64,000 bases of DNA from an uncultured Candidatus Peribacteria bacterium (GCA_964555845.1 CAZKUA010000004.1:12544-76543); one strand, 5' to 3'. Positions 3,005-61,361 are shown, counted from the stretch's first letter. Notes: generated from the sequence alone by a model not told the origin. Translations and numbers: made by a program.

Positions 3005-3025
3005 AAATTTTTTCTAGTCATTTTT
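2993..3025. terminator. bidirectional hairpin shared by two convergent genes
   Basis: Perfect inverted repeat AAAAATGACTAGAAA / TTTCTAGTCATTTTT with a 3-nt loop. It carries an A-run on one side and a T-run on the other. Both convergent CDS end inside it. Confidence 0.6.
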
Positions 3026-8023: not shown

Positions 8024-8161
8024 ATAAGTAAAGAAATAGTGACGACAGTTTAGCATATTTAGATAAGGAGTCAAATTTTTTTCACAAAAATTTGATTATT
8101 TTAGTATTTTTTATATAATTTGCTTTATTGAAAATCGTTCGTTTAATTTATTTTAAAAAAC

Positions 8162-11100: not shown

Positions 11101-14100
11101 AATCACAGCAAATGTAGTTAATTCAAATACTGATAATATTTCTATTAATCTTTCTTCTCTGACAGGAAATTGATCTCACACAAATGTAGTATGTAGTGCA
11201 CCTGGAGCTGGAATATCTTGTACTTATGTAGGGTGAGTAGTGACTTATACTTTTGCTGTATGATTTGCCGGAGCAGTAACTAATTGATTAAAATGGACAA
11301 CTCTTACTACAAATAATACAGATGGAATAAATACTCAAAATTCAAGTATTTCAGTTACTGTAGATAATACTGCCCCAGCTATAGTTGGAACTCCTATTAC
11401 TGCTCCAATAAGTTCATCAGTTTGGTGATGAACTACTCAGACTATAGTCCGGACTGCCGGGTCTATAACTGATAATTATTCTATTGCATACATGAAATTA
11501 GAATATAGTAATGATAACTGATGAAGCTGGAATGATATAGCTACAGGATCTAATCTAGGTTCTTATAACTGGGATATATCAGCTCTAGCTAGTGATACTG
11601 ATTATAAAATAAAATTAACAGCTTTTGATAGGGTAGATAATAATACTTCTACAATTTCCGATGCTTTTACTATAGATAAGGTTGCTCCTGCAGTTGCTGC
11701 TGATACAATTACTACTCCAAATGGGTCAAATATCTATAAATGATGACAAGCTCTTAATATTGCCTGGGATCAGACAAAAATAACTGACAATATAGCGCTA
11801 GCATCGAGTCCTATAAAACTCGAATATACCCTAGATAATTGAACCGCTTGGACTCAAATAGCAACAGGTGAAGCAAATGACGGGACTTACGCTTGGACAG
11901 TACCTTCGGTGAATTCTTCACAAGTCAAAATAAGACTTACAGCCACAGATAATGCTACAAATATAAATTTAGATACTTCTGATACTACTTTTATAATAGA
12001 TTCTACACTTCCAACTGTAGCTCTTACTTTTGCTGGAGCTGGATGATCTACTCCACAAAATGGAAAATATATCAATAATAGCTGATTAGATATAACTGCG
12101 ACAACTTCTGATTCCTATCTAGATAGAGTAATGTATAAATTAGAAAATATTACAGATACTCAATATTGGCAACAATCTACAACTGGATGGCTTGGAATAG
12201 AAAATTGGAATGATTTATGTATAGAACCTCAAGCTCTCTGAAATGGTTGAACTTGTGCAAATATAGCCGAAATTGCAACACTCGCAGGTATACTGGGTAA
12301 CAAAGATTATAGACTTACTATTAAGGCAATTGATGAAGCCTGAAATGAAAAAACCTATAATCCAGTCGATTATATTGGGGATGTTGTGAGTCCAAATTTA
12401 TCTATAACTACAGCAAATAATTATTATTTTAGTGGAAGTATAAATATAGCAGGTACTGCAAGTGATGCTCTGTCTGGACTTAGCTCGACTAATATTGAGA
12501 TAAAAAAATGAGCCTTATGGTGGAATGGGTCTGACTGGGTAGTTCCTCAGACGGTATTAGTTACTTCTGGGACAGCTGGGAATTGGAATTATAATTTTAC
12601 ATCGCCTGGAGCTGATGCGGACGCTACCAATTATAATGTAATAATCACGACTCATGATAGTGCATTTAAAACTAACAATAATACAAGTTCAAATATTAAT
12701 ATAATAAAAGATTCATCAGGACCAATTATTGATAATAGTGTATTTACCTTTGATACATCAGGAATTAGAAAATGATGAACTGCAATGACTATAACATGGA
12801 ATCCGGCGCTTATTACAACCATCTGAGCTTCACTAAATGCTAATTCTATAAAACTTGATTATAATTTTACAGGGTCTATAATTCCAATAGCTTCTTGAGA
12901 AGCTAATGATGGAAGTTATAATTTTACACTTCCAGCAGGAGTAGATAGTCTAACTGCAAAATTTATAATTACAGCATATGATAATTTATGAAATATTTCA
13001 AATGTTGTAGCGTCGTCTGATTTTATAATTGATAGTCTGCCTCCTACTGTTAGTACTGTTGAGACCCAGGATTTTAATACAGATGGTCAGATTGATTGAT
13101 TTATAGTTACCTTTTCTGAGAAAATAAATAATTGATCTGTAAATGTGGCAGAATTCAGTGTGTCAGATTGAATCACTCTTAATAATTGAAGTCATAGTAT
13201 ATATGATGCTGGAAATTATACAAAGCTTGAGCTGTATTTTAATGCACAATATTGAGACACTTCATCAATTCCTACGCTTAGTTATAATTGAGTGGCTATT
13301 GAGGATATTGCTTCAAATAAACTCGCTAATTTTACTAATAAGGCATCTGTAGATAAGGCTTCTCCTAGAATAACAAATGCTGAGATATATGATACTAATT
13401 CAAATGGAAAAGTAGACCAAATTAAAGTATATTTTACAGAAAATATAACCTCCACTACTGACATATGAAGTTTTACTTTAAATAATGTCTTGCCAGGAGC
13501 TTCTATATCAGGAGCTAGTGTGTCTGGAAATGTATGAACTCTGTCATTAGTAGAATCTTCAAATTATAATACTTCACCAGATGGAATGACCATTACCTTC
13601 TCTAATAATGGAGCATGGAAAGATATAAGTCCTGCCCTAAATGTCGCTGGAAATAGAGCAAATATAGCCCTAATAGATAAAGCTTCTCCTGTGAAAATAT
13701 CTGCTATAACTACTGATTCTAATTCAAACTCTAAAATTGATAGACTCGATATTACATTTTCTGAAGATATTGTCTGAAATATTGACTGAGATATTACTGT
13801 TTGAAATCTGGCAGCCGGATCATCTAAATGAGCCTCATCAGTTGTCTCTAATGTACTTAGAATTGCAATAAATGAAACAAGTGATAATAATGATACGGCT
13901 CAAATTCCAACTTTTGCATATAATTGAGCTAATTTAAAAGATAGCTCTAATAATCTAGTAGCAAATATTGCGAGCTTTAGTTTGAGTGATTGAGTAAAAC
14001 CAAAACTATTATTAAGAGAGACGGTCGATTCTAATTGAAATGGAAAATTAGATAAAATTAAAATAACTTTCTCTGAAACCCTAAATAATAATGTATGAGC

Positions 14101-15769
14101 AATAGTAATAAATGTAGCATGATATGTAGTGAGTTCTTATTCATCAAGCGCTAATTTATTATATGCTAATCTAGATGAACTAGATATTTCCGATACCTGA
14201 GCTACACCAAATGTTCAAATAACTTCAAACACTACACTTTGAGATACAACAAATAATTTAGTGTTTACAGAGTGAGCGGCAACTGCATCCACAGATAAAG
14301 TATGACCTGTTGTAATTTGAGCTAGATATTCAGCAAATACTGTTTATGTGGATTTATCAGAGAATTATGGAGGAGTACTTGATAATAATTCATTTGTACT
14401 GAGTGGCTCTGCTCTGCCAAGTATTACAAATACGGTATGAGCTGGAAGTCAAGTAACTATAACTCTTAGCTGACCAATTAGTGCTAACACAGAAATCTCA
14501 GCTGCAGCAAATACTGTAGAGGATGGAGCTTGAAATAAACAAGCCTCAACATATTTTATGGTAATTTCAAGCTCACTAATTATCAATGAAGTAATGTATT
14601 CTACAGGTAATACTCAATATATAGAACTTAAAAATCTATGAGCTAATCCTGTAGATCTAACAAATTGGGTAATAGAAAATGGGGGAGGGAATTGAGTAAA
14701 TATTACTGTAACAGCTTGAAATATACCGGCCTGATGATTATTTTTAATTACAAAAACTGGAATAACAGAACTTAATTGAGTTGTGACTGATTTTAATGCT
14801 GGACTTTCACTCGATTTAACTACTCAAAATGATTTAATATTAAAAGATAACTCTTGAAATATATGGGATAGTGTCCAATCTAGTCCGTGGCCAGCTGGAA
14901 GTGGAAGTCTTTGAGTTGCTATGGAGAGAATAAGTTCTCCAGGAAATTGATTAAATTCTTCTTCTTGGTATTCTGCAACTACAAATAATTGACTTACAGC
15001 TTGATTTCTTGGGACTCCAAAAAATCCTAATGTATTTGATTCTACTATTCCGACTATAAATAGTTTCTCGCCTGCAGATAATACTCTATATCCTGTTGGA
15101 TGACTAAATGTAGTATATAACTATTCTGATAATGTAGCCGTGGATGATAGCTCGTATACATTTGCATTAGAAAAATGGAATGGAGTTAACGCTTGGAATG
15201 ATGCTTCCGCTGGAATAGCTAATTCTTCAGTTAGCGTAACTTCTGCCACATTTACTTTGGCTAATCTGACTTTTTGAAAATACAAAGCTTCCTTTACGAT
15301 TGATGATACCAGTGGAAATACAGTTTCAAAAGATATAATTTTTTATGTTGATAAATTCGAATTTACTATTTCAAATTCAAGTATTAATTTATGAGTTATG
15401 GAAGTTGACAGCTTAGTGAGTGCTACGCAAAATGCGACTATTACAATAAAAACGCTCGGAGCTGGATTTGATTTGAATATCGGATGAGATACTACGCTGG
15501 ATGCTTGAATTAATTCAATTCAAAGTTGGAATACTCTGTATTGATTTTGAATTGATTATGAAGCGACTAATTCTGCAACACCTAAAGTATTTTGAACTAC
15601 CGATGCTATCCCAAAAGTACTAGAAAGTAATCCTACTTGAAGTATTGATTGAAACTGAAACCAGAAAACATTCACATATAATGTAAAATATCAATGAAAA
15701 ATACCTTTCATACAAGTGGCTGGAAATTACAGTGCAAATACAAGTTATACTGTGGATATTAATTATTAG
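8162..15769 (+). CDS. giant secreted surface protein (2535 aa) with Ig-like repeats, four Ca-binding-like modules and a lamin-tail (LTD) domain
   Basis: ATG at 8162 and TAG at 15767 are in the same frame. I translated the whole frame by eye and spot-checked many lines for TAA/TAG. The track ORF 13586-13777 lies in this frame. Signal peptide MKIIKKFFVYIIVISLVFNQSFYNIVNA. LTD signature LIINEVMYSTGNTQYIELKNLGANPVDLTNWVI at about 14566-14760. Composition is rich in Thr, Ser, Asn and Gly. Confidence 0.8.
13036..14090 (+). repeat. four tandem ~105-aa intragenic modules inside the giant ORF
   Basis: Recurring cores: LPPTVSTVETQDFNTDGQIDGFIVTFSEKI, ASPRITNAEIYDTNSNGKVDQIKVYFTENI, ASPVKISAITTDSNSNSKIDRLDITFSEDI and VKPKLLLRETVDSNGNGKLDKIKITFSETL. 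They recur at a period of about 320 nt. Confidence 0.7.
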
Positions 15770-37050: not shown

Positions 37051-40000
37051 ATGCATAAATTAAGATTAGGAGATTTAAAGAATTTCCAAGTATATGATAG
37101 AAAAACTGGATTGTTTAATTCTCAAGATTTAGTAGCCAAGATTATTGATTGAGAAACTATGGAAATTTTTACTCAACCAAAAAATCCAGCAGAAATTATT
37201 TCATTGTCTAAAAATAAGACTTCTCTTGATTATAAGGAAAGAAATAGTTTTAGATGTAATGAAAGAGAAGATGCTATAATAAGTAGTATTTTAAAAAATC
37301 CTTCTAAGGATTTATCTGAGATAGTTGCTCGTCAGAGAGTTTTCGATGAACTATTGTCAAGCAGAGTTGATTTAGAAAAATTAATAAAATTAAAAAGAGA
37401 AAGTGAGAGATTTTGAGAGACTTTAAAATATCTATGGTGATATGATAGAGATGAAAAGGAGCAAGCAGAAGAAGAAAGAAGGAAACCCAGAAAAAGAATA
37501 GATATTTTAAAGGAAGAAAACAAAAAATTTAGGGTAGAAAATTTTATTAAAATAGAAGAAAATTTAAGTAAATGAAAAATAGATGAAAAAACTTTTGATA
37601 AATTTATTGGTCGCGGAGATGGAATGCTTCATTTAATTAGTCTTAAAGATGAGTTTAATGACATTAATAAATTAATAGTCTATCTTAAAAAAGTAGCAAA
37701 TCCAGTTATTCAAGACTTAGCGATAAAATTAGAAACTGAATACAGACAAATAAATTTCTTGAGTGTTTCTTATTTTGTATGACTATATCTTGACTGAAAA
37801 GAAAAAGAAATAAAGAAATTTTTCACTCAAGCAGATAATCTTTTTAAGATATTAAATCAAGTATGAGCGCTATTATCCATAGCTTATAAAATAAAAGAAG
37901 ACGAATATAGCAAGGTAAGTTTTGACGAAACTAAACCAATGCAATTTAAACAAGCTTGGCAATTTGAAAGAACTAAAAAATGAAGAGATCGGTGAGATAA
38001 AGTTCCACCACAAAAATTAAATGATTCTATGGATAGCACATCTTGTAATGTGCTAGTTTGAGATATAATGTCAGGAAAAAGTTTTCAATGAGAACTTAAT
38101 AAACAATTACATATTTGTGCTCAATCAATTTGATACGCCCCTGCAAAAGAAGTTAATGTTCACATTTTTGATAGATTTGTATCGATAGACAGAGCCTTGA
38201 CTGATTCATGAAAATGACTGAGTGCTTTCGGGGAAGATATTACAAATATAAATAAATTATTAGAATTAAACAGTATATGATGAACTACATTTTTATTTAT
38301 GGACGAGTGGTGATCGACAACTTCTCCAGAAGATCAGGCGATTTTGCTTAAATCAATATTAATTTATATGACAAATAAAGGTATTAAAGTAGTTCTTGCG
38401 ACTCATAATGAAGAATTTGTAAAATATGTTAATGATAATATTAATTTTAGTGTTTATCATCTTGAAGATAAATTAAATGATGACGGAACTATAACTTTTT
38501 TGTATGAATTAAAAAAATGAATTTGAGAACATCATATTCTAGAAGCTGCAAAAACTCTCTGATTACCAGAAAGTATCCATCACACAGCACAGCAATATCT
38601 AGAATGAAATATCCTAGAGGCAAATATCCCAGAAATTAATTTTAGAGATGTTGTAAAATATACTCCTGAAGAAAGAGAAAAATTAAAACAAGAGCTAAGA
38701 AGTTTTATGTCTTTAATGCCTTATAGAGATGAAATAAAAATTATATATAAGGAAAAGGCAACAAATTATAATCGTCCTTATGAAATTACAAAATTTCCTG
38801 TTCTAAAATGGAAATATTCCATGGATAATGAAGATAGGGAAGAAAAATCAAGAAGTAATTGGGGTTGAGGAAGAGAATACACTTGATATCAACCAGAAGA
38901 AAAACCAGAATATAATAAGATATTGTCTGTAATAAGCGATGATGATGATTTTAAACGGACTCATTTTAAATGATTGAAATTAGAGCGCTATGATGATATT
39001 TGAAAATTTATAACTCAATCTCCCATAAGAAGTTCTCAAGATATTTTTGAAATTCAAAAAATGCTTGAAGAAATAGATAGATTATGAGTTGAAAAATTAG
39101 CAGAAGAAAGAATTAAATTACACAATTTTTTATGGCATTTAAACAGGTCTTTATATACAATTAGAGATTACTGAGAAAATTTTAATAACCATTTGTTTGA
39201 GGATACTTATAAGGAATTTAAGGGAGATAGTTTATCTTGAAGAAATTTTTTATATTCATTTAGATTGTTTGTTTTATCAATAAAAATAAGTCTAGAATTA
39301 TCATGACTTAAAATTGAAGATGATAGTTATTTTAAAGAACAATTAGCTAAATTTGATTTATTAATTCAATTCAAACAAAAAATAAAAGAATGGAAAAAGA
39401 GGAGAGAACAAGAAAAAAAGGATTGAGTATATGAAAAACTAAATGAAGAAGAATTTGAAATAAAACAAAATGAAAATGGTAAAGAATATAATAAGATAAT
39501 TGATGATTGTGCTAAACTTGCTTGATTTGATACATCAAAAAAAGATTGGTTTGAAATTAGTCAAATAATAACTTTTTGATGTAAACAAATTTGAAAAGAA
39601 TTTTATGAGCATTACAAAGATAAATTTAAATCTTATAATTTATTTGATATAGATTTGCAAATAGTTAAGAAATTAATGAATGAAGAAAAAGAAGCTTTAA
39701 CTAAACTTGATTGGATGTGAAATAGTGGCATTAGTTTTATATGTTGACTTTATGCGATAGTATGACAAGAAGTTGATATTTATTCAACCACAAATGAATT
39801 AAAAAAATATGACTCAGTTCATTTTCATCAAATATCTAATTTTTGGGAAAATATTTTAAAAGAAGTTTTATGAGATATAAAAACATGAGATGATATTTTT
39901 CAAATTCTCAAAGAAAGTTATAATTCGAATAAGGATGAACTAGAAAGAAGAGAAAAAATAAAATCATTTCCAAATTTTGAAAAATTATTAATAGATATGA

Positions 40001-40749
40001 TAAATTTATTAGCCATTTTTGATCTATCTAAAATGATTAAAGATAATGATTTTTGCAAAGTTAATTTTAATCAAACTGGTTCTATTGTTTTAGATGAACC
40101 TTATAATCCAAATAAAAAGCCGGAAGAACAAGTTAAAAATAAATTTTATTTCTGAGAAGATCAAAGAGTTGTAATAAAAACCGGAGCCAATATGTCCGGA
40201 AAAACTCAAAGTCTTAAACATACAATATGGCCACTCGCTTTTGCAAATGCTATCGGTTATGCTCCAGCAAAATCTATGAATACTCCATTAATTGATAAAA
40301 TTTATTGGGTAGATCGCATAAAAGCTCGCCAAGATTTAAATTTAAGTTCCGGATGAACAGAAGTTATAGTTTTAAAACAAATTTTTGAAGAAATATCAAA
40401 ATCAAAATGAATGAATATTGGATTTTTTGATGAAATGTGGTCAACTGTTCCTCCAAGATTTCAGACAGCTCTCACTTATGCAACTATTAGGGAATTTATG
40501 CAAAAATGAGTTTATATTGATATTTCTCATCATAATCACGATTTTATAAATAAATTAATGCAGAATCATCCAGAAATAACTGAATCAGTTCATTTTAAGA
40601 CAAATATAATGGATGACTGAACTGTTTCATTTGATTATAAACAAGAAAGATGACATACAAAATCTCAAGCCTTACTTGTTGCAAAAACCTGTTGATTAAT
40701 ACAAGAAATTTTGGATATAGCAGATATGATTTCAAAAGAAGCTATTTAG
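37051..40749 (+). CDS. 1232-aa protein with two MutS domain-V-type ABC ATPase modules (MutS-related, no mismatch-binding or Smr domain recognised)
   Basis: The frame was checked for every line: ATG at 37051, TAG at 40747. Module 1: GDIMSGKSF (38059-38085), FLFMDEWGSTTSPEDQ (38290-) and LATHNEEF. Module 2: GANMSGKTQ (40183-40209), GFFDEMWSTVPPRFQ (40420-) and ISHHNHDF. Both modules share the ..IGYAPAK.. segment typical of MutS ATPases. Confidence 0.8.
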
Positions 40750-46733: not shown

Positions 46734-48014
46734 ATGAAACTAAAACAAGAACTCGAGGCAAGATGACTACTTAATCAGTATTCAAATGAGGAGGTTTTCG
46801 ACTTATATACAAAATGATGACAAAGTTTTTATATTTGATTTGATCCGAGTGCTGATTCACTTCAATTAGGTAATATGTGTGCAATTATGGCAGCAGTTAA
46901 CCTTATGAAATATTGAAATAAATGTTATTTTTTAGTTGGTTGAGCTACTGGTATGATAGGTGATCCAGGATGAAAAGATGCAGAAAGAAATTTTCTTACA
47001 GAAGATATTTTACGTCACAATGAAAAATCAATCCATAATCAATTAAAGTCATTTTTAGATAATTTAAAAGCTAATTATGGAATAAAATTCGATTTTGAAA
47101 TGGTAAATAATTATGATTTTTTCAAAAATATGTCAGTTCTTGATTTTTTGCGTGATGTTGGAAAATACATCACCATTAATAATATGATAAAGAAGGATAC
47201 TGTAGCTAAAAGAATCGAAGATCCAGATAAATCAATTTCTTATACTGAATTCTCTTATATGCTTTTGCAAGGTTATGATTTTGTAAAATTATTTAGAGAT
47301 AAATGAGTTAAATTACAACTTGCTTGATGAGATCAATGGGGGAATGCAGTAACATGAGTTGAGTTAATTAGAAAAATTGAAGAAAAGGAATGATATGTAA
47401 TGACTATTCCGATTGTAACTGATGCTAGCTGAAAAAAATTTGGTAAATCTGCAGGTAATGCGATTTGGCTTGACCCAAACAAAAATAGTCCATACTTTGT
47501 GTACCAATTTTTTATGAATGTTGCAGATGCTGATATTGAGAGATATTTAAAAATTCTAACTCTTCTAAGTCTTGAAGATATTTCAGATATTATGAAAAAA
47601 CATAATGAAAATCCAGAATTAAGAACATGACAATCTGCTCTTTGAAAAGCTGTTGTTGAAATAATTTTCTGAAAAAAAGCTTCAAATCAATCTGAGATGA
47701 TTTCAGATATGCTTTTTTGAAATAAAGATAAATTAGAGACTCTGAAAACACTTGAAAAAGATGATTTAGAAGCTCTTGCAAAAGAAACAGGAAGTACAAA
47801 TTATAATTCATGATTAATAATCCTAGATGCACTAATAAACTGCTCTCTCGCTAGCTCTAGATGAGACGGAAGAAAGCTAATTGAGTGAGGTTGAATTTAT
47901 CTAAATGAAGTAAAAGTTACCGATTGATTTGCTGAAATTACCGACAAGGATTTCATAAATTCCGCAATAATCATCAGAAAATGAAAGAAAAATTTTAAAT
48001 TGATTTTGAGGTAA
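46734..48014 (+). CDS. tyrS: tyrosyl-tRNA synthetase (426 aa)
   Basis: The frame was checked line by line. Motifs: [28 protein letters not shown] (TGA Gly codons) and KFGKS. The C-terminal S4-like domain is [20 protein letters not shown]. Confidence 0.93.
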
Positions 48015-48030
48015 TATTTTAAAACTCTAA

Positions 48031-50319
48031 ATGCAAAATTTAAACAAAATACTTAAAGAAAGTTTTTGACTTGAGTCGTTTCTTGAATGACAACAAGATA
48101 TTGTGGAGAGTGTCTTGGATTTAAAAGACACTCTTGTTTTTATGCCGACTGGTTGAGGTAAATCGCTGACTTATCAGCTTTCTGGGATTTTGTTGCCGGG
48201 GCTTACGATTGTAATTTCTCCGCTTATTTCTCTGATGAAGGATCAATTAGACAAGTTAAATGAACTTAAGATTAGGACCGAGATTATCAATTCTACAATT
48301 TCTGGAAATGAGCAAAAACAAATTTTGGATGAACTAAATTTCACTGATTTTACGGAGAAAAATGCTATAAAATTCCTGTATATCGCTCCAGAAAGACTCA
48401 ATTCTCGTGAATTTCTGGATGCTATTTCAAATATAAAAATAAGTCTGGTTGCGATAGATGAGGCTCATTGTATCAGTCAATGGTGACATGATTTTCGTCC
48501 TAGTTATATGAAAATTAAGAATTTTTTGACTGATTTGAAAAAAAGACAAAATTTTCCAGTGATGGCATTGACGGCTACGGCTACGAAAAAAGTAAGAGCT
48601 GATATTGTGGATAGACTAGGTTTAGTTGATTACAATGTTTTCACGAAATGATTTGACCGCAAAAATATAATTTTACTGGTAAAAGAAATTAGTAAAAAAG
48701 AAGAAAAACTAGCTAAAACTCTAGAGATTATTGAGAAAACTCCAGGGTCTGGAATTATTTATTGTTCGAGTATCAAAATGGTTGAGGAGGTCCATGAATT
48801 TCTAAAATCAAATGGGGTGGATGTTGGTATTTATAATGGGTCTTTGGGGGCATCACTGAGAGAAAATGAGCAAAATAAATTTATGAATTCAACTTATAAA
48901 GTGATTGTCGCGACAAATGCCTTTGGGATGGGAATTGATAAAAGTGATATTAGGTTTGTAATTCACTATAATTTACCTGGAAGTATAGAAAATTATTATC
49001 AAGAAGTCTGAAGAGCCTGAAGAGATTGACTGAAGTCTTATGGCGTTGTGCTCGCGAGTTTTGGTGACACAAAAATCCAGGAATTTTTTATAGAAAATAC
49101 TTATCCCGCTAAATCAGAAATTCTAGATTTTTACGATTATTTATTTAAGGAATTTAAACTGGGTGAATGAAAATGAGCTCAAATTCTCAAAACTTATTAT
49201 CAAATGTCGAAAGAATCCGGAATTGGAAGTGATATGAGAGTTGGAAGTATTTTAAAAATTCTCGAAAAGTATGGAATTATTTCAAGGTGAGTTGATGAGA
49301 AAACAGATGAGGGATTTAGGTGAAAGTGAATCACTCTAGTTCAGGAAAAAAGAAAGCATTCTGGAATTTTAATCGATTGGAATAGACAAGATTTACTAAA
49401 AAAAGAAGCTTATTTTAAGCTCGACCAAATCAAAAAACTACTTTTTTATCCGAGTTGTAGAAGAAGATTTATATTAGAATATTTTCAGGATGAGGAGGAT
49501 TTGAGCTCGCTCCCAGATAATTGTAGGACTTGTGATTATTGTATTGAAAAGAAAAAACTTGAAAATAGGGAAGTGGAAAGTATTGTAAATTTGTCTGTTT
49601 TTGGATTAGTTTTAGAGGTAATTAAAAAACTTGATAATAAATTCTGAGTTATGACTTTTGTACAATTTTTGAGTGGAAGCCAAGATAAGAAAATATTGAG
49701 CTGGAATCTTGATAAAGATGAGAATTATTGAATTTTAACTGAATATTCTACTCAATTTATCCAGGCTCTAATTGAAGCTCTAATTCAACAAGGATTTATA
49801 GAGAAATCAAGTTGACTTTACCCCGTTATTTGACTTACAAGTAAATGAAATATTGCGCTTCGTAGAGAAGATTTACTCAAAAAAGAAGAAAAGGAATTAC
49901 AATCTTTTATAACACTCAGGTCCGGATCTAATATTTTCAAAAAAGATAAACCAAATAAAACAAGTGCTTCTAAGCCAAAGAAATCATCAATTTGAAAATG
50001 AGATACTTATGCTGAAACTCTTGACTTATTTAACGAGTGAAAAAATATCTCTGAAATTGCCAAAAATCGCGAAATGACAACAAATACAATAGAATCCCAT
50101 TTAATTAAACTCTATGAAACAGGGAAATTAGTGACTGTTGATTTATTAAAAATTGCCAATACCTCAAATGTTACTAAAGTCCAAGAAATTATAAAGTCTG
50201 ACTTTGCCGATAATACAGACAAACTAAGACCCATCAAAGACAAACTCGAGGAACTAGGTTTTTGAGAAATAAATTATTTCGAAATTAAGGTTGCAATTTC
50301 ATTATTGCTTAGAAACTAG
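48031..50319 (+). CDS. recQ: RecQ-family ATP-dependent DNA helicase (762 aa)
   Basis: The frame was checked line by line. MPTGGGKSL (middle Gly is TGA at 48154-48156) and the DEAH box ([18 protein letters not shown]). The Zn-binding cysteines are [10 protein letters not shown]...CRTCDYC. The C-terminal HTH-like tail is [14 protein letters not shown]. The code-25 stop is TAG at 50317. Confidence 0.92.
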
Positions 50320-50577
50320 TTTTCATGTTGTAAATTTATGCAAAACTGTTGAAATAAGAGTCTGATAAGGTAATCATTCTTCTGCCGCTATAGTTCTAAG
50401 TCTTAAAATATCTGATTCTAGAATTCTAATATTTATAGGTTTTCTACTTTGGATAGTTTTTTTAAAAGATTGCTTTAATAGCGCCTTTCTTTTATCTAAA
50501 TTTTTCGCACTCACAAATTCTCATTTTTCAAATGATTCAATTAAATCTTTTTCTTCTTTATCTATAAAATTATACAT
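50302..50577 (-). CDS. BrnA-like (CopG/RHH) antitoxin (91 aa)
   Basis: ..RKPINIRILESDILRLRTIAAEEGLPYQTLISTVLHKFTTGKL is the BrnA_antitoxin pattern. Its 3' end overlaps the recQ 3' end convergently by 18 nt. Confidence 0.6.
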
Positions 50578-50600: not shown

Positions 50601-50849
50601 TTACTTTTTGTATCTCCTGTCAGGAAATAAGGTTTTTAAAAATATTGTTTTTTCATCTTCCACATATGGACAAACATATGGATATCATCAAATATTAACA
50701 ATCATAATTCTTTGATTTGGATATTTTTCTTTGTTTGGATGTTCTAAATCATCTAAAATCTCGGAATTCAAAACATCCTCAAAACATACTCATCTTTGCC
50801 TCTTTATTATCTCATTTTTTTCATCATCCCAAAGTATAATTTTACTCAT
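50601..50849 (-). CDS. BrnT-like (DUF497-like) toxin (82 aa)
   Basis: MSKIILWDDEKNEIIKRQRGVCFEDV...IFLKTLFPDRRYKK resembles the WDxxKxxxNxxKHGVxFE pattern. It lies directly upstream of the antitoxin-like gene. Confidence 0.55.
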
Positions 50850-51101
50850 CAAAATATATTTAACAAATACCTTTTGTATACCGCCATAGTATACAATTTT
50901 AAAAATAAGTCAAACTATTTTTTAAAATTTCGAAATCAAAGTTGCAATCTCATTACAAACAAAGTAAAAATTCACTTGACAAATATCAATAATTTCTTAT
51001 ATTTCAACTTAATCTAAAATAAAAATAAAAAAATACTTTTGTCTATTATCCAAAAAATCTAGGCATTTTTTTATTTTTTTCATCATTTAACCAAATATAT
51101 T

Positions 51102-54068
51102 ATGCGCAGTGAAAGAAGTACTCCTGGGGTGACAAATATTCCTTGAAATTCATCATCTGAACACAGAGAAAAACAACAAAATAATACTCAAATATTCTGA
51201 GAAATTCAAATTTGAGAAATGAAATATCCGTCTTATTTAAGACCAGATTGAACTCCTTTTACAGTCTGATGAGAACCGATAATAGTTATAAGTTGTGAGG
51301 GAAATAGTGCAAGAGTTATTATGAATTTATTAGATATTTCAAATTCAATAATTGAAGTAGTTTGGGAAAATAATGAGCCTAAAATTATAGATTTAGGTTG
51401 AATAGAATTTTTATGTAAAATTTATGATAATAAGGTATTTAAAGTAGCTTTAATGAGTAATAAAATTAAACTACCATATCATTTATATGAATCACCTTTA
51501 GTTATTATTAAACAAGATGGACGTGATATGTTGATAACCGAGAACAATGAATTGTTTTATTCAGTTATTTATATTGAGAAACACTGAAGACCTCATCCTG
51601 ATGTTTATTCAAGAATTTTTTATAAAAAATGAGATAAATATATACCTGTAACTTTTGAATGAGAAGCACCATTGCATGATTTTATTTGAGTTCCAGATGT
51701 TGAAGGTATGAGTTTATGGGATAGAAATAATCGCAGACTAATTTATTGGGATAAAGAAGCTGAAACATTTAGGCAAGTAGAGAAAAATGGTATAGTATTT
51801 GAGAATGTTCATCAAAATCTAAAACATGATGAGTATTCAATTAATATTTGAGATAAAACAGTACCCTTTTCTAAATCTTTAGACAATCCGAACCAGCCAG
51901 CTTCAATTGAAATTAATTGAAATTTCTTCTTTGTATTATATTTAGATAAGAATTCATCTATAAGTCATGTTTCGGCTTGAGGTCAATCATTTCCAATTAA
52001 AATTAATGAGCCAATTGTTATTAACTGAAGAACTTTTTATAAAATAGTAGATCAGAGAAACTATTATATTGATTGATTTTATAATCCAAATTGATTTAAT
52101 TTTTTACGTTTTGAAATTAATGAAAATAAAGAAATAAAGACATTTGATTATCAAGGTAAAAAATTACCAATTATTGACTCTACATGTAGTGATTTAACTA
52201 AAATTCATTCTGAAAATCCTATTATTGAAATATATAATTTTGAATGAAATAACTCAGAAAAGATTATCTTAATGAAAAATTCTAAATTTAATGAAAATGA
52301 AGAAGAGAAATGAGAGGATAATGAGAAAAGCGATAAAATAGATGAAGAATATATTAGACTTAAGCTCACTCCGGATCAATCAGAAAAAAATTTAATAACT
52401 ACTAGTTATAAACATTGAATTATTTGTTTATCTAATAGTGTTAGTGGTCAATCTAAATATGAATTCTATAGAATTAATCCAGATTGAACTCTAGATTTAG
52501 CATTTAAAAATGCTATTAATATTTCAATAAAAGATAATGTTATAATTGAGTGTTATGATAGAGAAGTTAGGTTTAAACTGAGTTATACCCTAATTCGCAG
52601 ACCTGGGACATCGAGCATTTTTGAGCCAGTAGATTATAATGGTAAACCCTGTCTAGTTGCTAAGTGAATAAATTCATGAACTGTAACTTATATTTCTATA
52701 GAGGATTTTTCTGAAATAATTGAGCAATATATTTGACCAGATCCAGAAATACTTACTTCAATGATTAATAATAAATTTGAGCTTTGATGAGAAACTTTGT
52801 TTTATAACGATGATTGAACTATTAATTTATTGGACAAAAAATTTCATTTAGCTAATTCTAAAGGTAAGCTAGTGAAATCTCCAGAAAACTCAATTCTAAA
52901 AGTTTGAGATAAAGAAATTCTATTGCTTGTAAATAAAGATGATACAATCGTTGGTTATTTTGTGTGAATGAAAACTGATTTAGACATGCTTGACCTAAGG
53001 CATTATGTTAAAACATCTCCTGATTTACTTGAATCCATAAAAAGAGAAGTTATTAAAGTATCAGTAGATGGTGTGGAAGCTATTTGTAATATGAATTATC
53101 CAGAATTTAGAGCTCTTCGAATATGTGAAATTGTAAATGAATATTTTTATAATCGTTATGTTTGTAATGTGTGAAATGCTACAAAAATTTCTTGAAAGGA
53201 ATTTATGTGTGATTGAGAACAAATTGAAATTCAGGAAATATATTCAGAAGAATATGTTTTGGATAAAAAATGAGAACTATATTATAGAAAAGATCTTTGA
53301 AATGAACTAACAAAAGTAATTCTACCAAGAAGGGTATATCTTTCTAATGCTTGAATTCCTTATATACATCCAGATTTATATAATTCTATTTGACAAAACA
53401 AATGACCTCAGGACTGAAAATTTCCTCTTAAAATTGTAAATTGACAGATAAATCCTATAGGAAAATTTTCTAATTTATATAGAGTGGATATGGAAGATTT
53501 TGATTGTATTATAAATTGAGTAGAAAAAACATTCATAAATTTATGGAATTATAAAACAAATCAAATTTGCTCTTATACCGAGGAAAGTTGGGGTTTTGAA
53601 GCCTTTAAAATTTGTAATCATAAAACATTTTTTGATGATAATAATATTAGAATTTATATTGATTGAGATATTATTGATTGAAATATTGATGTTTGTAAAA
53701 ATATTTTTGGAAGAAATATTATATTACCAAGGCTAAAAGATAATTTTAGAGAGGAATATGAATATAAAACTGTAATAATTCACGAACAAATCAAGACAGA
53801 AGATTTTATTTTTGCCAAAGCTTGGAATTCAGATATGGATGGAGTTCAAATATATCCTTTATATAAAGTTGATTGAAACTTTGTTGCAATTGAGATTCCA
53901 GAATGATATAACTTTAGATTTGAAAACTGAAAAATACTGATTAATGGCATTCCCTACGGAGACAACGAGGTTAAACTTTTCTACGAAAAATTCAGACCAG
54001 AGCAAATTAACACTAAATGAGTCGTAGAAAAAGTAACTTGAAAAGTCAAGGATTTAACTCAAAAATAA
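51102..54068 (+). CDS. large hypothetical protein (988 aa), no signal peptide or known domain recognised
   Basis: ATG at 51102, TAA at 54066. I translated the first ~1.9 kb codon by codon and checked the last 0.9 kb line by line. Track ORF 52968-53174 is in this frame. Confidence 0.7.
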
Positions 54069-54094
54069 TTTTTATTTAACTAATTTTATAAAAT

Positions 54095-54763
54095 ATGAAA
54101 AATAATTTTCTACATGATCACAATAATCTTGTAACTGAACATCATATACAGCAAGAATCAAAAATTTGCGAAAATATTTTTGAGATTTTGGCACATTTAG
54201 CAGTATTTAATCCATTGATAACTTGTATTTTTCCTGATGTTGCATCTCTTGGTGCAGCAACATATATCGCTATTCTTCCTGATAAATCAAGTAGAGAACA
54301 TTATATAAATCTTCATATTAAAGAAATAGTTAAATATTTTCAGAAAAAAGAAAATGTAAAGAAATTTGCACAGGAAGTAGAGAAATTCTATCTAGAACAT
54401 AAAAAGGCACTTGATAAAGCCTGAATAAATAACTCTCATAAAAATGCCTACAGTATGGCAATAGCGACTATTAGAGCAGTTGCGGATATGCAGAATAAAA
54501 CTAAAACAAAAACTAATAAAACAAGTTCTAATCTTACCCAGATACCAAGCATTAATTCTCAAGTTATTGCAAAATTTTATGAGATATTTAATGAATATAA
54601 AAAATATGATATCGTTTGAGATATTGAGTGAAATTTGATAGATATTAATGGAAAAAATGAATGAGCAGTAAGAAATTTTTCTGGTGGAGATATAATTAGA
54701 ATATGAGGAAAGTGTATTAATCCCGAAACAAGAAGTTCTATTTTACTTAAATATTGAATTTAG
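54095..54763 (+). CDS. paralog A of a three-member tandem family (222 aa)
   Basis: The frame was checked. Shared N-terminal module: ..C(E/S)NI(F/Y)EILAH.A(V/I)FNPL..CI(F/Y)P...KYFQKKENV(K/E)KFA.EVE.FY..HK.AL.KAGIN.SHKNAY.MAIAT(I/L)R, then GDIEGNL. Confidence 0.65.
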
Positions 54764-54802
54764 AATATTAAAATAATTTTTATTTAACTAACCCTACTAC
54801 CT

Positions 54803-55849
54803 ATGAATAATAAAATAAGTGATTATGAAATACAACGTGAACCAAAAACTTGTAGTAATATCTACGAGATTTTGGCTCATCCAGCAATTTTTAATCCGCT
54901 TATGAATTGTATTTATCCAGAAATAAACCCAAAAACAATAAATAATATTGTTCCTGATAAATCAAGTAAGATACACCATATTTTTCTTCATATTGAGAAA
55001 ATTGTTAAATATTTTCAGAAAAAAGAAAATGTAGAGAAATTTGCAAAGGAAGTAGAAATTTTTTATTTAACACATAAAAATGCACTTGAGAAAGCTTGAA
55101 TCAATGATTCTCATAAAAATGCCTATGTTATGGCAATAGCGACTCTTAGAAGTGTTGCAAATCAAAAAGTGAAAGAAACGAATGATTCAAAGCAAAATTT
55201 TACAAGTATTAATGCTAAAATATCTGCCGTAGTTGATATTCAGTCTCAAGTTAATCTTAAATTCAGAGAAATATTTGAGTGATATAGAGAACAAGCTATA
55301 GCTTGAGATATTGAATGAAATCTTGTTAAGGAAAAAGAATGAAAAATAAAAGAGTTTTTTGGTAAAAATGTCATAAAAGTTAATTGAAGAGTTATTTATA
55401 CAGACTCAAGAAAACCTGTTATTGTAGAATGATGTGAGGTTATTAGTTTATTTAGATATAATACTTTACCTAATTGAAAAATAATAAGAAGAGCAAATAT
55501 AAGAGATAAAGACTTAAATCAAAAAATAATTTATATTACAAAAGAAAATGAAATTTTTAGAGTAGAATGACATGAAATTATTAAAGCTTCCAACCCTTAT
55601 TATTGAAAATCAGATTTACTATCTATACCTAAATGAACTCTTATTTCAAGCGTAAATTTAGAAAATTGAGAAGAAAGGTATATTACAAAAGAAAATAAAT
55701 TATTTAGAGTTGAATTCAATAATAAGCAATGTGAATTATGCGATATATGTTCATATAATGATAGACGTGGATGAACAGAAATTATTATTAACTATAATTG
55801 AAAAGAAATAAAAGTAATTGTTACAAAAGATTGAGTAGAAAAAATGTAA
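54803..55849 (+). CDS. paralog B of the tandem family (348 aa)
   Basis: The frame was checked. The N-terminal module is about 85 percent identical at nucleotide level (by eye) to paralog A over the KYFQKKENV...AIATLR stretch. The C-terminal region has repeated YITKEN(E/K)(I/L)FRVE units and CELCDIC. Confidence 0.65.
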
Positions 55850-55873
55850 TTTAACTAATTAACTTTATAACTT

Positions 55874-56980
55874 ATGAATACTTTAGAAAATTTTGAGCAA
55901 GAAAGAAAAACTTGTAGTAATATCTACGAGATTTTGGCTCATCCAGCGATTTTTAAGTCATTAATTAGCTGTATATTTCAGGATATAGAAGCCGATGAAT
56001 ATCAACATATTTATAATATCAAAAAACAATTTCTATGAAATCGGAATAATAAAGAATATAGAGAAGAATTTTTAAGATATGAGGAAAATATATCTAAAAT
56101 CCTAGAATTTTTCAAAGATGAGACAAATGTGAAGAAATTCGCGAATGAGGTGGATAAATTCTATACTGAGCATAAAGAAGCTCTGTATAAATCTTGAATT
56201 AATCATTCCCATAAAAATGCCTACAGTATCGCAATAGCTACTTTAAGACAATTTGAAGATGATAAATTTGTTGATAATTCAGAAGTTGATAATCATACAA
56301 GTATTAAACCTACTCAAAAAGATGATATTGTAAAAAGAGTTAATGATAAATTTGAAGAAATACTATCTGAAATTCGTCCGGATTATTTGATTGTTTGAGA
56401 TATTGAATGAAATCTTGTTAATTGAGTTAATTCCAATTATATTATTGATTTTTTTGATAAAAATGTAGCTCAGATTAAAAACAATTATATTGATATAGAT
56501 ACAAGAAAGCCTATAATTATTGATGATTGTAATCTTTACTGGATGTCAAATATTTATTTACCAGGTTGAAAAAATATTGTAGAAGTAGAATTGAGTAGAA
56601 ATTCAAAAACTGCTGGATTTATAACAAAATATATGCTGAATAAAACTGAAGAATACAGTGTAGAATGAAATAAAATAGTTAGTATTTGGGATAGAGATAA
56701 TTTACCAAATTGAGACGAAGTAGCAAAAATAGTACTTGAAAATGAAGATACTAGATATGTTACAAAAGAAAATAAAATTTATAGAGTTCATTTTGAAGGT
56801 AGTGAATGTGAGGTTTGTGATTTATGAGAAATGAAGGAAATTTCTAAATGAAAAAATGCTAGACAGGCTATAATTATAGATAAAAATTGAAAGAAAAGAA
56901 AAATATTAATTTTAGAATATTGAATACAAAAACCAATGTTTACTATTTTCTGAAAAGCTTTTTTTAAGTTTTCAAGCTAG
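55874..56980 (+). CDS. paralog C of the tandem family (368 aa)
   Basis: The frame was checked. A roughly 38-nt identical stretch is shared with paralog B (ACTTGTAGTAATATCTACGAGATTTTGGCTCATCCAGC). The C-terminal region has YVTKENKIYRVHFEGSECEVCD. The code-25 stop is TAG at 56978, after read-through of TGA at 56921 and 56951. Confidence 0.6.
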
Positions 56981-57107
56981 TTTTCCTTGAAAAATTTTAC
57001 AAAAAATTCTGGAAAATTTCCAGAATTTTTTGTTTATCTTTTGACTTTAATTTAAAAAATATAAAATCTATTAAACTTATATATTTATAATCTGTAATTA
57101 AATTAAT

Positions 57108-58604: not shown

Positions 58605-61361
58605 TTATTTATTTTTTAAAAGTTTTAAAATAGCTTCATTAAAAATTTCTTGTTTTCTTATTAATTCAATTAAAATTCTTTGGTTTTCTGTCAGGTTAGC
58701 TTCAACTATAATTCATTCTTTTAAGATTTTATCATTTTCTTTTAATACACCAACAATTTGTTCATTAATATCTACTTCTTCATCCATAGATTCACCATAT
58801 ACAGCATTTTCGATTTCATGTTGGCTCATTTCTCAATAAAGTAGTCTTTGTATTTCCTCCATTGTTCTTTTTTGTTTTGGGAACTGATTAGTTCTAACCA
58901 CTTTTAAAACTTCTTCTAGGGTAGTTTCTCATTCTATAACACGACAAAATCCATCCTCAGCCATACTTGTCATACCATATCTGCGGGCTATAGTTTCGAG
59001 TTCAGAAGCTGTTTTTCTTTGAATTACCGCTTTTTTTAATTCTTCATTTACACAAAATAGCTCTACAATACTTACTCTTCACTTATATCCAGTATCATTA
59101 CAATGATCACAACCTTTTCATTTTTTAAATTTTATTTTATGTTCTTTAAGATAATTACCCATATTTTTTACATATCTTTTTAAATATGAGAGATCATTTT
59201 CATTTGGAGTGTAATCTGTAATACAGTGTGGACATATTTTTCTAACTAATCTTTGTCCTACTAGAGACACAAGAGTTGAGCCCAAAAAGAATGGCTCTAT
59301 TCACATATTTATAAGCCTATCTATAGCAGATATCGCATCATTTGTATGAAGAGTAGATAATAATAAGCGACCTGTAAGACCTGCTGCTATAGCATTTTGA
59401 GCCGACTCTAAATCTCTCATTTCTCAAAACATCAAAATATCTGGGTCTTGTCTTAATATTGTTTTTAGTACAACTTCAAATGATATTTGATTTTTTCAGC
59501 CAGCATCTATTTGATTTGCTCATCTAATGGTATATTCAATTGGATTTTCCACTGTCACTATATTTTTTTCATCACTATTAAGATTAGATAGAGTTGAATA
59601 CAGTGTTGTAGTTTTACCGCTTCATGTAGGTCAAGTTATTATAATAATACCACTTGGAAGTACTGTTACAAGTTCATATTTTCTGGCAATATTTAGTCTC
59701 ATTCAGAGCTCTTGAACTGATGGAATTATATCTTTTTGAATTAATAGACGAGCAACTATTGTGTCTCAGAAATTTGTAGGTATTAGAGAAAATCTAATAT
59801 CAACTTTTATATCTTTATCATCATAATAAACACTTATTCTTTCATCGTATGTTTCACTTTTTTTCCAAGAATCAGCGAAAACAAAATAATTTTTAATAGT
59901 ATTTGTAAATCATTTACTAATTTGAATTGGTAACTCTCCAATTTGCTGAAGTACTCAATCAACGCGCGCTCTAATTCTTACTCTATCTTCCTCGGGTTCT
60001 ATATGAATATCTGATGCTCATTTATTTATTGCTTCTATTAAAATATCTGCAAATTTATTAAGATTGTCATTAGTTTCAGATCTAAAATTTTTTCAAATAT
60101 TAAAAACACCAGAAGCACTTTTAAAATCTTGCTTTGGTTCCATTTTTTCTCTACTCATTTTCCTAAAAACTCCCTCATTTTTGACACATTCATCAATAAA
60201 TGGGTTTATTTCATCTTTTGTGGCATATTCAAAAACTATTTCAATTGATAAATCATTTAATTCCTCTTTTTTTAGATTTGTAAAAATAGCTTCTTTAATT
60301 TCTGAAGATTTTTTTAAAATCTGTCTTTTTATTTCTTCTATTTTTTTTCCTGCTGAATCATCAGATAAAACTGTAATAATACATCCTTTAATTTCAGGAG
60401 GCGCCTTACTATCTTTATCTCATAATTTATCTTCATTTTTGTATGTCTGAAAAATTCTATAAGGTACAAAATTTAGATCCTTCATTATTCTTCTTTCTTT
60501 GCTAAAAATAGGAAAAATTTTTGGGTCTATACCAGAAATACTAGGTTTTGATCTAATCATATTCTTTTGTTGAGCTATGATTTTTAATAATCTGTCTTTA
60601 CTCACAACTCCCATATCTTCAACTAAAATATCTCATATTTGTTTTTTTGTTCATTTTGCTTCCCAATCCCTTTGTAATGCTATTGCATTTTCTAATTGTT
60701 CTCAATCTATTAAATTATTTGCTACCAGAAGCTCACCCGTTTTCATAGAGAATTCAGGGTGAGATTTTATAAAATTTAAAAATTTTCTCCTATCAATAAA
60801 ACCGAGAATCATTAATATTTCTCAAACCATCATTATTTTACCATCTTTTGCCTTTTCTGCTTTATATTTTAGAGCTTCCTCAAGATTTTTTTGAGTAATA
60901 AATTGAGCTTCAATCAGAGCTTCTCATATTTGCTTTCTAGGTATATTATTTTTAATAGGGACTACATCAGTATCTACAGGTAAATTTATAATACTTTGAG
61001 TCTTGTCTTTAACTTCTTCTTTTTGAGAGGTTAAAGGTTCTACTCTTGATTCTATAATTTTTATTTGTTCTCTATCAGTAGGAATAATTCAATTTTTTGC
61101 AATAAAATCAAGGAATTTTTTTCTGTTTTTTTCAATATTTTTAGATCAAAATAATATCTCTAAAAATGAAGGAATTTCTCATATATCCTTATTTGAATTA
61201 GCTATTTTTTTTTGATAATCTATAATTTTATTAAGATCTCATTCAGATAATAAATTTCATTTTATGAATTTTTCTCAGATTATTTTTGAATTTTCTAGTA
61301 AATTTAATAATGCTTGCTCATTTCAAGCTCAAGAATTTATTCAACTATTTATTGTATTCAT
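58605..61361 (-). CDS. pilB: type IV pilus assembly / T2SS GspE-family ATPase with an extended N-terminal region (918 aa)
   Basis: The frame was checked for every line. Walker A is TGPTGSGKTTTL at 59607-59636, with two Gly encoded by TGA. Also present: the Asp box, Walker B (DPDILMFGEMRD), the His box ([10 protein letters not shown]), the tetracysteine CPHC...CDHC, and N-terminal GSPII_E_N-like repeats. Confidence 0.9.

Follow-up and report, generated by a model that had tools for sequence, protein, structure and literature searches.

In this study we analysed a four-gene locus (positions 51102-56980) within a 64,000-nucleotide (nt) stretch of DNA (GCA_964555845.1, CAZKUA010000004.1:12544-76543; the whole stretch is referred to below as the window), labelled as originating from an uncultured Candidatus Peribacteria bacterium. 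The locus comprises a gene for an orphan protein of 988 amino acids (aa), here called the big protein, followed by three co-oriented paralogous genes, A, B and C, whose products share a conserved head, extended in B and C by a fast-evolving repeat tail. The A/B/C family is limited to UGA-recoded bacteria and the big protein is limited to this clade. We propose that A, B and C represent a leaderless family with a conserved head and variable binding tails, which works with the 988-aa protein and plays a role in recognition or conflict rather than in core housekeeping; we estimate the probability of this reading at about 0.45.

Translation of the region 46-64 kb with table 11 revealed no open reading frame (ORF) longer than approximately 130 aa, and a RecQ-like gene was visibly broken up; this reading, in which the locus breaks up into ORFs of at most 153 aa, was rejected, as it yields fragments only. 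When TGA was treated as a sense codon, the summed length of ORFs of at least 100 aa rose about tenfold (from 8 kb to 79 kb), and neither of the other two stop reassignments tested gave a comparable gain in ORF length. In-frame UGA codons were detected at invariant glycine positions of (i) the RecQ Walker A motif (PTGxGKS), (ii) a PilB-like ATPase (GPTxSGKTT) and (iii) the tyrosyl-tRNA synthetase, TyrRS (GDPxGK). Since UGA falls on invariant glycines and the ORF content rises to such an extent, the window uses genetic code 25 (UGA = Gly). This code, together with a G+C content of approximately 25% (the locus does not differ from its surroundings in this respect), indicates Gracilibacteria or Absconditabacteria, and the closest public genome carries the NCBI label Candidatus Gracilibacteria. 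The host of the operon is a Candidatus Gracilibacteria genome with code 25. Under this code the genes of 988, 222, 348 and 368 aa described in an earlier, sequence-only reading of the window were recovered as ORFs at exactly the same coordinates. UGA constitutes approximately 62% of all glycine codons in the window vs 73% (81/111) in the four genes of the locus (Fisher p = 0.018).

Pairwise comparisons of the three smaller proteins gave 51% identity over 214 aa for A and B (E 1e-69), 42% for A and C (E 5e-45) and 39% over 358 aa for B and C (E 2e-65). Judged by these alignments, A, B and C are true paralogs, their similarity being far beyond chance. None of them resembles the 988-aa protein; a relationship between the tail and the big protein was considered and rejected by a hidden Markov model (HMM) test and by hhalign (probability 0.3%). 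The sequence-only reading had proposed a shared N-terminal module of approximately 110 aa. The homology is real, but it covers approximately 215 aa, i.e. nearly all of A, and takes in both the GDIEGNL motif, correctly noted before (A175/B168/C175), and a D(T/S)RxP motif.

The family architecture consists of a helical head of approximately 155 aa, a variable linker and a β segment containing GDIEGNL/DTRxP. The head carries an invariant N-terminal cysteine and an HKNxYSIAIATxR helix. When 23 diverse members were compared, one cysteine near the N-terminus and the arginine of DTRxP were, apart from the start methionine, the sole residues found in all of them, with H23, K103 and N104 almost invariant. 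In B and C this module is followed by a tail of approximately 145 aa bearing (Y)(I/V)TKEN..(F/Y)RV(E/H) units; the tail is composed of β-hairpin repeats with glycine turns (2-3 units of approximately 45 aa). Two such units were identified in B, YITKENEIFRVE (B244) and YITKENKLFRVE (B293), while C contains one canonical unit, YVTKENKIYRVH (C295), and one degenerate unit, YMLNKTEEYSVE (C253). The repeats and the cysteine pair (CELCD at B310, CEVCD at C312) are found in B and C and are missing from A, as previously described. The possibility that the cysteine pair forms a zinc site was rejected, because these cysteines have been lost in the C orthologs of two related loci (L001 and L006, see below).

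A profile built from the three paralogs matched 10 proteins among 5.8 billion, one of which bears the name Candidatus Gracilibacteria at NCBI. When 1.84 billion cluster representatives (clusters at 50% identity) were searched exhaustively with HMMER, 31 matches were obtained at E <= 1e-3, including one false positive, a protocadherin. All real family matches are rich in tryptophan because UGA has been mistranslated, and their source organisms are therefore UGA-recoded; the database relatives are fragmentary on account of pipelines that do not apply code 25. For the 988-aa protein the same set of 5.8e9 proteins contained orthologs only, even when a 6-sequence profile was used. Scans of genome contigs and metagenome contigs added only further close relatives, and no relatives were present in 2.9 million viral contigs (IMG/VR), the INPHARED phages or the PLSDB plasmids.

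The related loci share a common frame: CSD - TyrRS - RecQ - [big gene + array] - Wzx-like flippase - T2SSE/PilB-like ATPase - PmbA/TldD. The order as far as the ATPase was seen in L001, L002/L004 (NCBI GCA_023230505.1) and L006, and in part in two short loci, L018 and L019; in the window, RecQ lies at 48031-50319 and the PilB-like ATPase at 58605-61361. The sequence-only reading had suggested examining the array for variation among related metagenomic genomes, and its gene content indeed differs between the loci: big-A-B-C in the window; big (split into 758+185 aa)-A-B-C in L001; big-B-[AAA_28 + CYTH-like]-C in L002/L004; big-[AAA_28/CYTH]-B' (with three repeat units)-C-ParE pair-flippase in L006; big-A-AAA_28... 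in L019; and ...B-C-flippase in L018. The big gene precedes the array in 5/5 loci for which upstream sequence is available, so that its co-occurrence with the paralogs extends to the relatives. Duplication as an assembly artefact is excluded: identity between the copies is no higher than 39-51%, and independent assemblies of at least five further metagenomes contain the array.

Identity between orthologs amounts to 64-72% for the big protein, 66-83% for B and 48-57% for C (79% to C of L018); orthologs of A were found in L001 (70%) and L019 (58%). For the housekeeping proteins on the flanks the corresponding values are 81-94%. Distant members of the family (P0023, P0025 and P0029) are 20-28% identical, occur as single copies in other neighbourhoods and have no homolog of the big protein nearby.

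Several accessory genes accompany the array. A gene for an AAA_28 P-loop protein of 371-377 aa occupies varying positions (L004 8842-9975, L006 940-2055, L019 1042-1284) and is absent from the window; the C-terminal half of its product begins with a CYTH-like sequence, IERENKYLV (ExExK), the CYTH assignment having been made by eye. Between RecQ and the big gene of the window lies a gene (50302-50577, minus strand) for a protein similar to CopG antitoxins (Pfam E 1e-4, below the cut-off), and upstream of it an 82-aa ORF (50601-50849, minus strand), which by eye looks like a BrnT/DUF497-type toxin, with no Pfam match. This CopG-like pair is present in L001 and absent from L004, and in L006 a pair of the ParE type lies on the opposite side of the array. 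A gene for a 128-aa acidic protein is located between C and the flippase gene in L001 (12212-12598, minus strand) and L004 (11136-11522, minus strand); the window lacks it, and only a terminator hairpin separates C from the flippase gene. The big gene of L001 (6272-9184) is split into parts of 758 and 185 aa, and in L018 the B gene (204-1270) is spread over two frames; these splits could be due to pseudogenisation, programmed frameshifts or assembly errors.

The ratio of nonsynonymous to synonymous substitution rates (dN/dS, omega), calculated by the NG86 method, was 0.09-0.12 for RecQ, 0.05-0.09 for the flippase and 0.15-0.18 for PmbA. The corresponding values for the locus were 0.40-0.45 (big protein), 0.29 (A), 0.30-0.40 (B) and 0.27-0.56 (C). 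All four genes are thus under purifying selection, 3-5 times weaker than that acting on their neighbours, and the tails are the least constrained parts. The conserved-head, variable-tail layout recognised in the window is real and holds between orthologs as well as between paralogs, the heads (omega 0.11-0.51) of orthologs being more constrained than their tails (0.45-0.82). C is the fastest-evolving member, its tail reaching 0.63-0.82 in comparisons with C of the window.

Patches of closely similar DNA had been described between A and B (approximately 150 nt, 85%) and between B and C (approximately 38 nt). We found a tract of 213 nt with 83% identity in the former pair and an exact block of 42 nt in the latter, as well as a second exact B/C block of 27 nt at GDIEGNL. 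The core of the B head (alignment columns 66-140) has a nucleotide identity of 83% to A vs 68% to B of L001. The proportion of synonymous differences (pS) in the A/B tract is 0.37 between A and B of the window, which is close to the value for the A ortholog pair (0.41) and well under that for A and B of L001 (0.62). The A-like tract is 98% identical between B of the window and B of L004. The B tail, in turn, is nearest to that of L001, the synonymous divergence (dS) from which is 0.28 in the tail and 1.1 in the head. The tract pS, the sharing with L004 and the discordant dS of the B head and tail support an A-to-B conversion, old enough to be common to two lineages, plus inter-lineage recombination; the gene conversion between paralogs postulated earlier thus finds support at synonymous sites. 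A similar patchwork was seen in the big protein, in which segments of 90-97% identity occur together with segments of 38-50%.

The second part of the earlier claim, that the duplication is recent, did not hold. Orthologs of B are 66-83% identical vs 39-51% between paralogs, and the A-like tract in B is common to a second lineage. Because every paralog resembles its ortholog much more than it does the other two members of the array, the duplications are older than the species splits. Subtypes A, B and C arose by old tandem duplication, in which the leader was copied along with the gene, and were later reshaped by conversion between paralogs, recombination between lineages, changes in repeat number, and gene gain and loss in the array.

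The relatedness of nearby genes is also discordant. TyrRS (46734-48014) is 94% identical to its counterpart in L001 and 66% to that in L004 (dS 0.54 vs 1.14), and the T2SSE ATPase is 71% identical to that of L001 vs 53% for L004; RecQ and CSD are nearer to L004. This pattern suggests frequent recombination between these lineages over the whole neighbourhood.

A 31-nt core, CTTGTAGTAATATCTACGAGATTTTGGCTCA (54849-54879 and 55911-55941), located approximately 45 nt into the coding sequences of B and C, is kept at synonymous sites in most B/C orthologs and was also found at L006 3361 and L018 1333. A conserved RNA element in this 5' block was considered and found to be unsupported, as a hairpin (z = -5.2) was significant in B of the window only and not in C or in the orthologs.

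As shown in Table 1, the four genes are closely packed, the intergenic gaps big/A, A/B and B/C being 26, 39 and 24 nt; no ORFs are contained in these gaps. From this arrangement we infer that big-A-B-C constitute a single four-gene transcription unit, extending from the promoter-like site at 50976 to the terminator at 56999. Repeated leaders had been reported upstream of the paralogs. This is correct for A and B, which are preceded by identical 22-nt sequences, whereas C and the big gene retain only the core ATTTAAC(T/C)AA. The core, which thus precedes all four genes, represents the local form of a motif similar to TTAATTAA that occurs upstream of many genes of the window. This AT-rich motif, resembling TTAATTAA/TTAACTAA, is repeatedly found 10-25 nt before start codons (e.g. 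24012, 24761, 37051, 41421 and 46734), and the paralogs have a local variant of it as their ATTTAACTAA leader. No obvious Shine-Dalgarno-like sequence was detected upstream of the window start codons that have the AT-rich motif. No integrase gene, flanking repeats or meaningful flanking inverted repeats were found around the array.

Table 1. Features of the big-A-B-C locus and its borders (positions within the window).
Feature	Position	Strand	Remarks
Promoter-like site TTGACA-16-TATATT	50976..51003	+	11/12 match to consensus, best score in the region; approximately 100 nt 5' of the big gene; putative function
Big orphan protein, 988 aa	51102..54068	+	Code 25 ORF; 47 UGA-Gly codons; β-rich
22-nt leader AAAATAATTTTTATTTAACTAA 5' of A	54062..54083	+	Overlaps the stop codon of the big gene; from DNA comparison
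Paralog A, 222 aa	54095..54763	+	Short subtype: helical head and first β strands, ending just past the (D/E)TR motif
A/B high-identity tract, copy in A	54271..54483	+	83% nt identity
22-nt leader 5' of B	54770..54791	+	Identical to that of A
Paralog B, 348 aa	54803..55849	+	Head and two-unit β-hairpin-repeat tail; mosaic gene
42-nt block in B	54844..54885	+	Identical to 55906-55947 in C; encodes KTCSNIYEILAHPA
A/B tract, copy in B	54946..55158	+	Putative A-to-B conversion tract
Two tail repeat units of B (DNA level)	55516..55715	+	55516-55568 and 55663-55715, coding for (Y)ITKEN..FRVE
Paralog C, 368 aa	55874..56980	+	Head, β-repeat tail, hydrophobic/basic C-terminal peptide KPMFTIFGKAFFKFSS
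42-nt identical block, copy in C	55906..55947	+	
Tail repeat unit of C (DNA level)	56740..56792	+	75% identical to B unit
Bidirectional terminator hairpin	56999..57033	.	Perfect, 16 bp; 19 nt past the stop codon of C

When the four proteins were compared with the profiles of Pfam, NCBIfam, PHROGs and PADLOC, no match passed the cut-off, in agreement with the earlier statement that they match no named family. The 988-aa protein, described before as having no recognisable domain, had no match in these databases, nor did a PDB profile search with it reveal anything. The sub-threshold matches (PSD13_N, EssC, DUF5122, WH_CYT4) are short helical or of low complexity, and those in PHROGs are at chance level and concern families of unknown function. 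HMMs of repeat families (WD40, Kelch, NHL, PQQ, WG and others) matched neither B and C of the window nor the correctly translated distant members at E up to 1; the distant members had been re-scanned after code-25 translation to rescue repeat families dependent on glycine. The sole match to a repeat family was that of the big protein to DUF5122, which is weak (E 0.013, below the cut-off); in this protein self-BLAST detected no internal repeats, and mainly β-hairpins and two C-terminal helices were predicted. The only PDB profile match, of the KNxYSIAIA stretch to glycerol-3-phosphate dehydrogenase (1txg, E 0.2), was judged to be due to chance.

Structure and representative searches were performed with the NCBI orthologs P0004 and P0041. 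In the AF2 model of the code-25-translated C ortholog P0004 (predicted local distance difference test score, pLDDT, 65), the head (residues 1-156) is built of ten helices and the β domain (residues 183-350, pLDDT approximately 80) of approximately 15 strands, while the linkers are disordered. Foldseek comparison of this model with PDB and BFVD yielded no match at E <= 1e-3; the best BFVD match had E 0.02 and a TM-score < 0.2. The top PDB matches were β-propellers aligned to the tail, all of them weak (E 0.014-0.1, TM-score approximately 0.15, in a model of pLDDT 65). With β-propeller and β-hairpin repeat proteins (WD40, NHL, acylaminoacyl-peptidase and TolB, all as weak Foldseek matches) the tails share β units of approximately 45 aa and glycine turns; the resemblance to propeller blades is no more than weak, E being at least 0.014 and the TM-score approximately 0.15, and no Pfam repeat family matches up to E 1. 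Speculatively, a closed propeller would need oligomerisation, because only 2-3 units are present per protein.

No signal peptide or convincing transmembrane segment was detected in the four proteins; their N-termini are polar or acidic, and the conserved cysteine is not preceded by a hydrophobic h-region. The C-type proteins and many distant members end with a short hydrophobic/basic peptide of high helical hydrophobic moment (in many members at or above the 90th percentile), which hints at peripheral membrane association. The "hypervariable gene" of a Gracilibacterium (Sieber 2019) encodes a PTD-repeat surface protein and is unrelated.

Being devoid of leader sequences, A, B, C and the big protein would act inside the cell; the C-type proteins and the majority of the distant single-copy members may be attached to the membrane from within via their short C-terminal peptide. 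The conserved head would do the same job in all members, probably that of docking to one partner, which in this clade would most likely be the co-transcribed 988-aa protein. The fast-evolving β-repeat tails would confer differing binding specificities. We favour a role in recognition or conflict, directed at phage or at molecules of a host or competitor, over core housekeeping because of the rate pattern, the recombination and the flux of genes (toxin-antitoxin (TA) pairs on the flanks and the roving AAA_28/CYTH-like gene).

Several points weigh against this proposal. Mean omega is below 1, and relaxed constraint alone could be a sufficient cause of the rates. Docking of the head to the big protein is a pure inference from co-transcription and from co-occurrence in 5 close loci, and no homology points to a biochemical activity. 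The fold search gave no match (best Foldseek E 0.014, TM-score approximately 0.15), the AF2 model of the big protein (3 sequences) is unusable (pLDDT 29), a threshold of E 0.1 left all four proteins without a PADLOC match, and the signal of the amphipathic peptide is modest. Moreover, the distant single-copy members lack the big protein, and two of their loci (L008 and L015) share a Peptidase_M3/SPOUT_MTase/Beta_propel neighbourhood, which looks like a stable lineage-specific housekeeping role and not like a role in conflict. A more specific form of the proposal is improbable: a Gracilibacteria-specific intracellular recognition/conflict system, in which a new helical head fold would couple interchangeable, fast-diversifying β-hairpin-repeat sensor tails (B and C) and a tail-less regulator (A) to a β-rich effector or scaffold of approximately 1000 aa, with the AAA_28/CYTH protein being recruited for nucleotide processing in some genomes.

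The main rival explanation is that of a lineage-specific housekeeping or structural family (e.g. a membrane-proximal scaffold), produced by ordinary subfunctionalised duplication, with rates reflecting weak constraint in a symbiont of small population size and reduced genome. It accounts for the single-copy state of the distant members, two of which lie in the same neighbourhood beside housekeeping genes, for the A/B/C order and orthology kept across genomes, for omega being below 1 throughout and for the fact that no defence or toxin signatures were found in Pfam, NCBIfam or PADLOC. We nevertheless consider it rather unlikely, since omega is 3-5 times that of neighbours in the same genomes (up to 0.8 in the C tail), conversion and recombination yield mosaic genes, the gene content of the array varies among close relatives, and the family (31 clusters at 50% identity) is far from universal. 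Leaderless and fast-evolving proteins with a conserved module joined to a variable repeat module, encoded in a variable region where TA-like pairs lie and accessory genes come and go, might be expected of a novel intracellular anti-phage defence, in which the tails would sense phage components, the head would relay the signal and the effector would be the 988-aa protein, joined in some genomes by the AAA_28/CYTH-like protein. This has a low probability: PADLOC gave no match, no recognisable effector domain (nuclease, TIR, SIR2, protease or pore-former) was found in the Pfam and NCBIfam scans, the operon of the window contains no NTPase, and inheritance in all sampled relatives is syntenic and apparently vertical, not patchy.

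The sequence-only reading compared the locus with polymorphic toxin/immunity arrays and with receptor-binding cassettes. According to the former analogy the big protein or B and C would be toxins with variable C-termini, and A and other genes would be immunity or orphan modules. The tandem conserved-head, variable-tail layout and the TA-like genes close by are compatible with it, but the scans (Pfam, including its Ntox/Tox/Imm families, and NCBIfam) revealed no secretion or trafficking domain and no toxin or immunity family, and there is neither a signal peptide nor a hydrophobic N-terminal segment. The gaps of only 24-39 nt leave no space for small interleaved immunity ORFs, the tails of B, C and their orthologs align as one homologous repeat scaffold, with no unrelated swapped modules, and every paralog has stable orthologs. 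This very improbable explanation is therefore largely refuted. Still less credible is a prophage remnant or a phage-derived receptor-binding/tail-fibre cassette, despite the β-rich repeat proteins with variable C-termini and the few phage tail proteins among the weak Foldseek matches (E > 0.1). No phage genes occur at any of the syntenic loci (the neighbours being RecQ, TyrRS, the flippase and the T2SSE ATPase), there is no significant PHROGs match, no BFVD match at E <= 1e-3 and no relative in IMG/VR, INPHARED or PLSDB, and neither an integrase, flanking repeats nor a deviating G+C content marks the array. In sum, the observations of the earlier reading were confirmed as a whole; of its interpretation, the orphan family, the head/tail layout and gene conversion stand, and recent duplication, the toxin/immunity analogy and the receptor-binding array do not.

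Tandem gene families diversified by gene conversion include Neisseria pilE/pilS, Borrelia vls and the Mycoplasma variable lipoproteins, which are surface proteins with signal peptides or lipoboxes, often accompanied by silent cassettes. The A/B/C array resembles them in its co-oriented tandem paralogs, its conserved N-terminal and variable, repeat-containing C-terminal parts and its moving tracts, and, as in tandem gene-conversion families, the leader has been duplicated together with the gene. Unlike the copies of antigenic-variation families, however, those found here are complete leaderless ORFs with their own start codons, joined in one operon with no silent or invertible cassette; each has stable orthologs, and conversion has been old and limited. 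With the polymorphic toxins (contact-dependent inhibition (CDI), Rhs and LXG systems) the locus shares the head/tail idea, the tandem order and the location in a gene-flux region with TA modules, but its tails diverge gradually in one homologous scaffold and no secretion system is linked to the operon. A conserved domain combined with rapidly evolving repeats in cytoplasmic proteins of a variable locus is also typical of STAND/NLR-like and Avs-type sensors, from which A, B, C and the big protein differ in having no NTPase or known effector domain, no PADLOC match, and syntenic, vertical inheritance.

Some other genes of the window are worth mentioning. These are (i) a gene at 3014-4954 (minus strand) for a 646-aa protein in which a methyltransferase, a cytidine/dCMP deaminase (also similar to MafB19/SNAD4) and a Fic domain are fused, an unusual combination reminiscent of toxins or effectors, (ii) a giant ORF of 2535 aa (8162-15769, plus strand), (iii) an adjoining gene (5681-8056, minus strand) for a protein of 791 aa, which has a FecR domain and whose N-terminus is hydrophobic and pilin-like, and (iv) a gene at 37051-40749 (plus strand) for a protein of 1232 aa, in which two ATPase modules of MutS domain V are the only parts of MutS that can be recognised.

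Gracilibacteria are uncultivated, recoded and probably host-dependent bacteria, most of whose lineage-specific genes are functionally blank. Unless code 25 is applied, annotation pipelines miss the locus described here or mistranslate its glycines as tryptophan, and the public copies are mostly mistranslated in this way. The locus represents a well-delimited orphan operon with a clear head/repeat-tail logic and measurable dynamics, which include old duplication, conversion, recombination and a relaxed or diversifying selection on the tails, and with no detectable relatives beyond the recoded lineage. Should it prove to be a weakly constrained structural family, it would be an ordinary orphan cluster of the candidate phyla radiation. 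If it is indeed a recognition/conflict module, it would show how bacteria with reduced genomes handle phages or hosts, and would define new folds.

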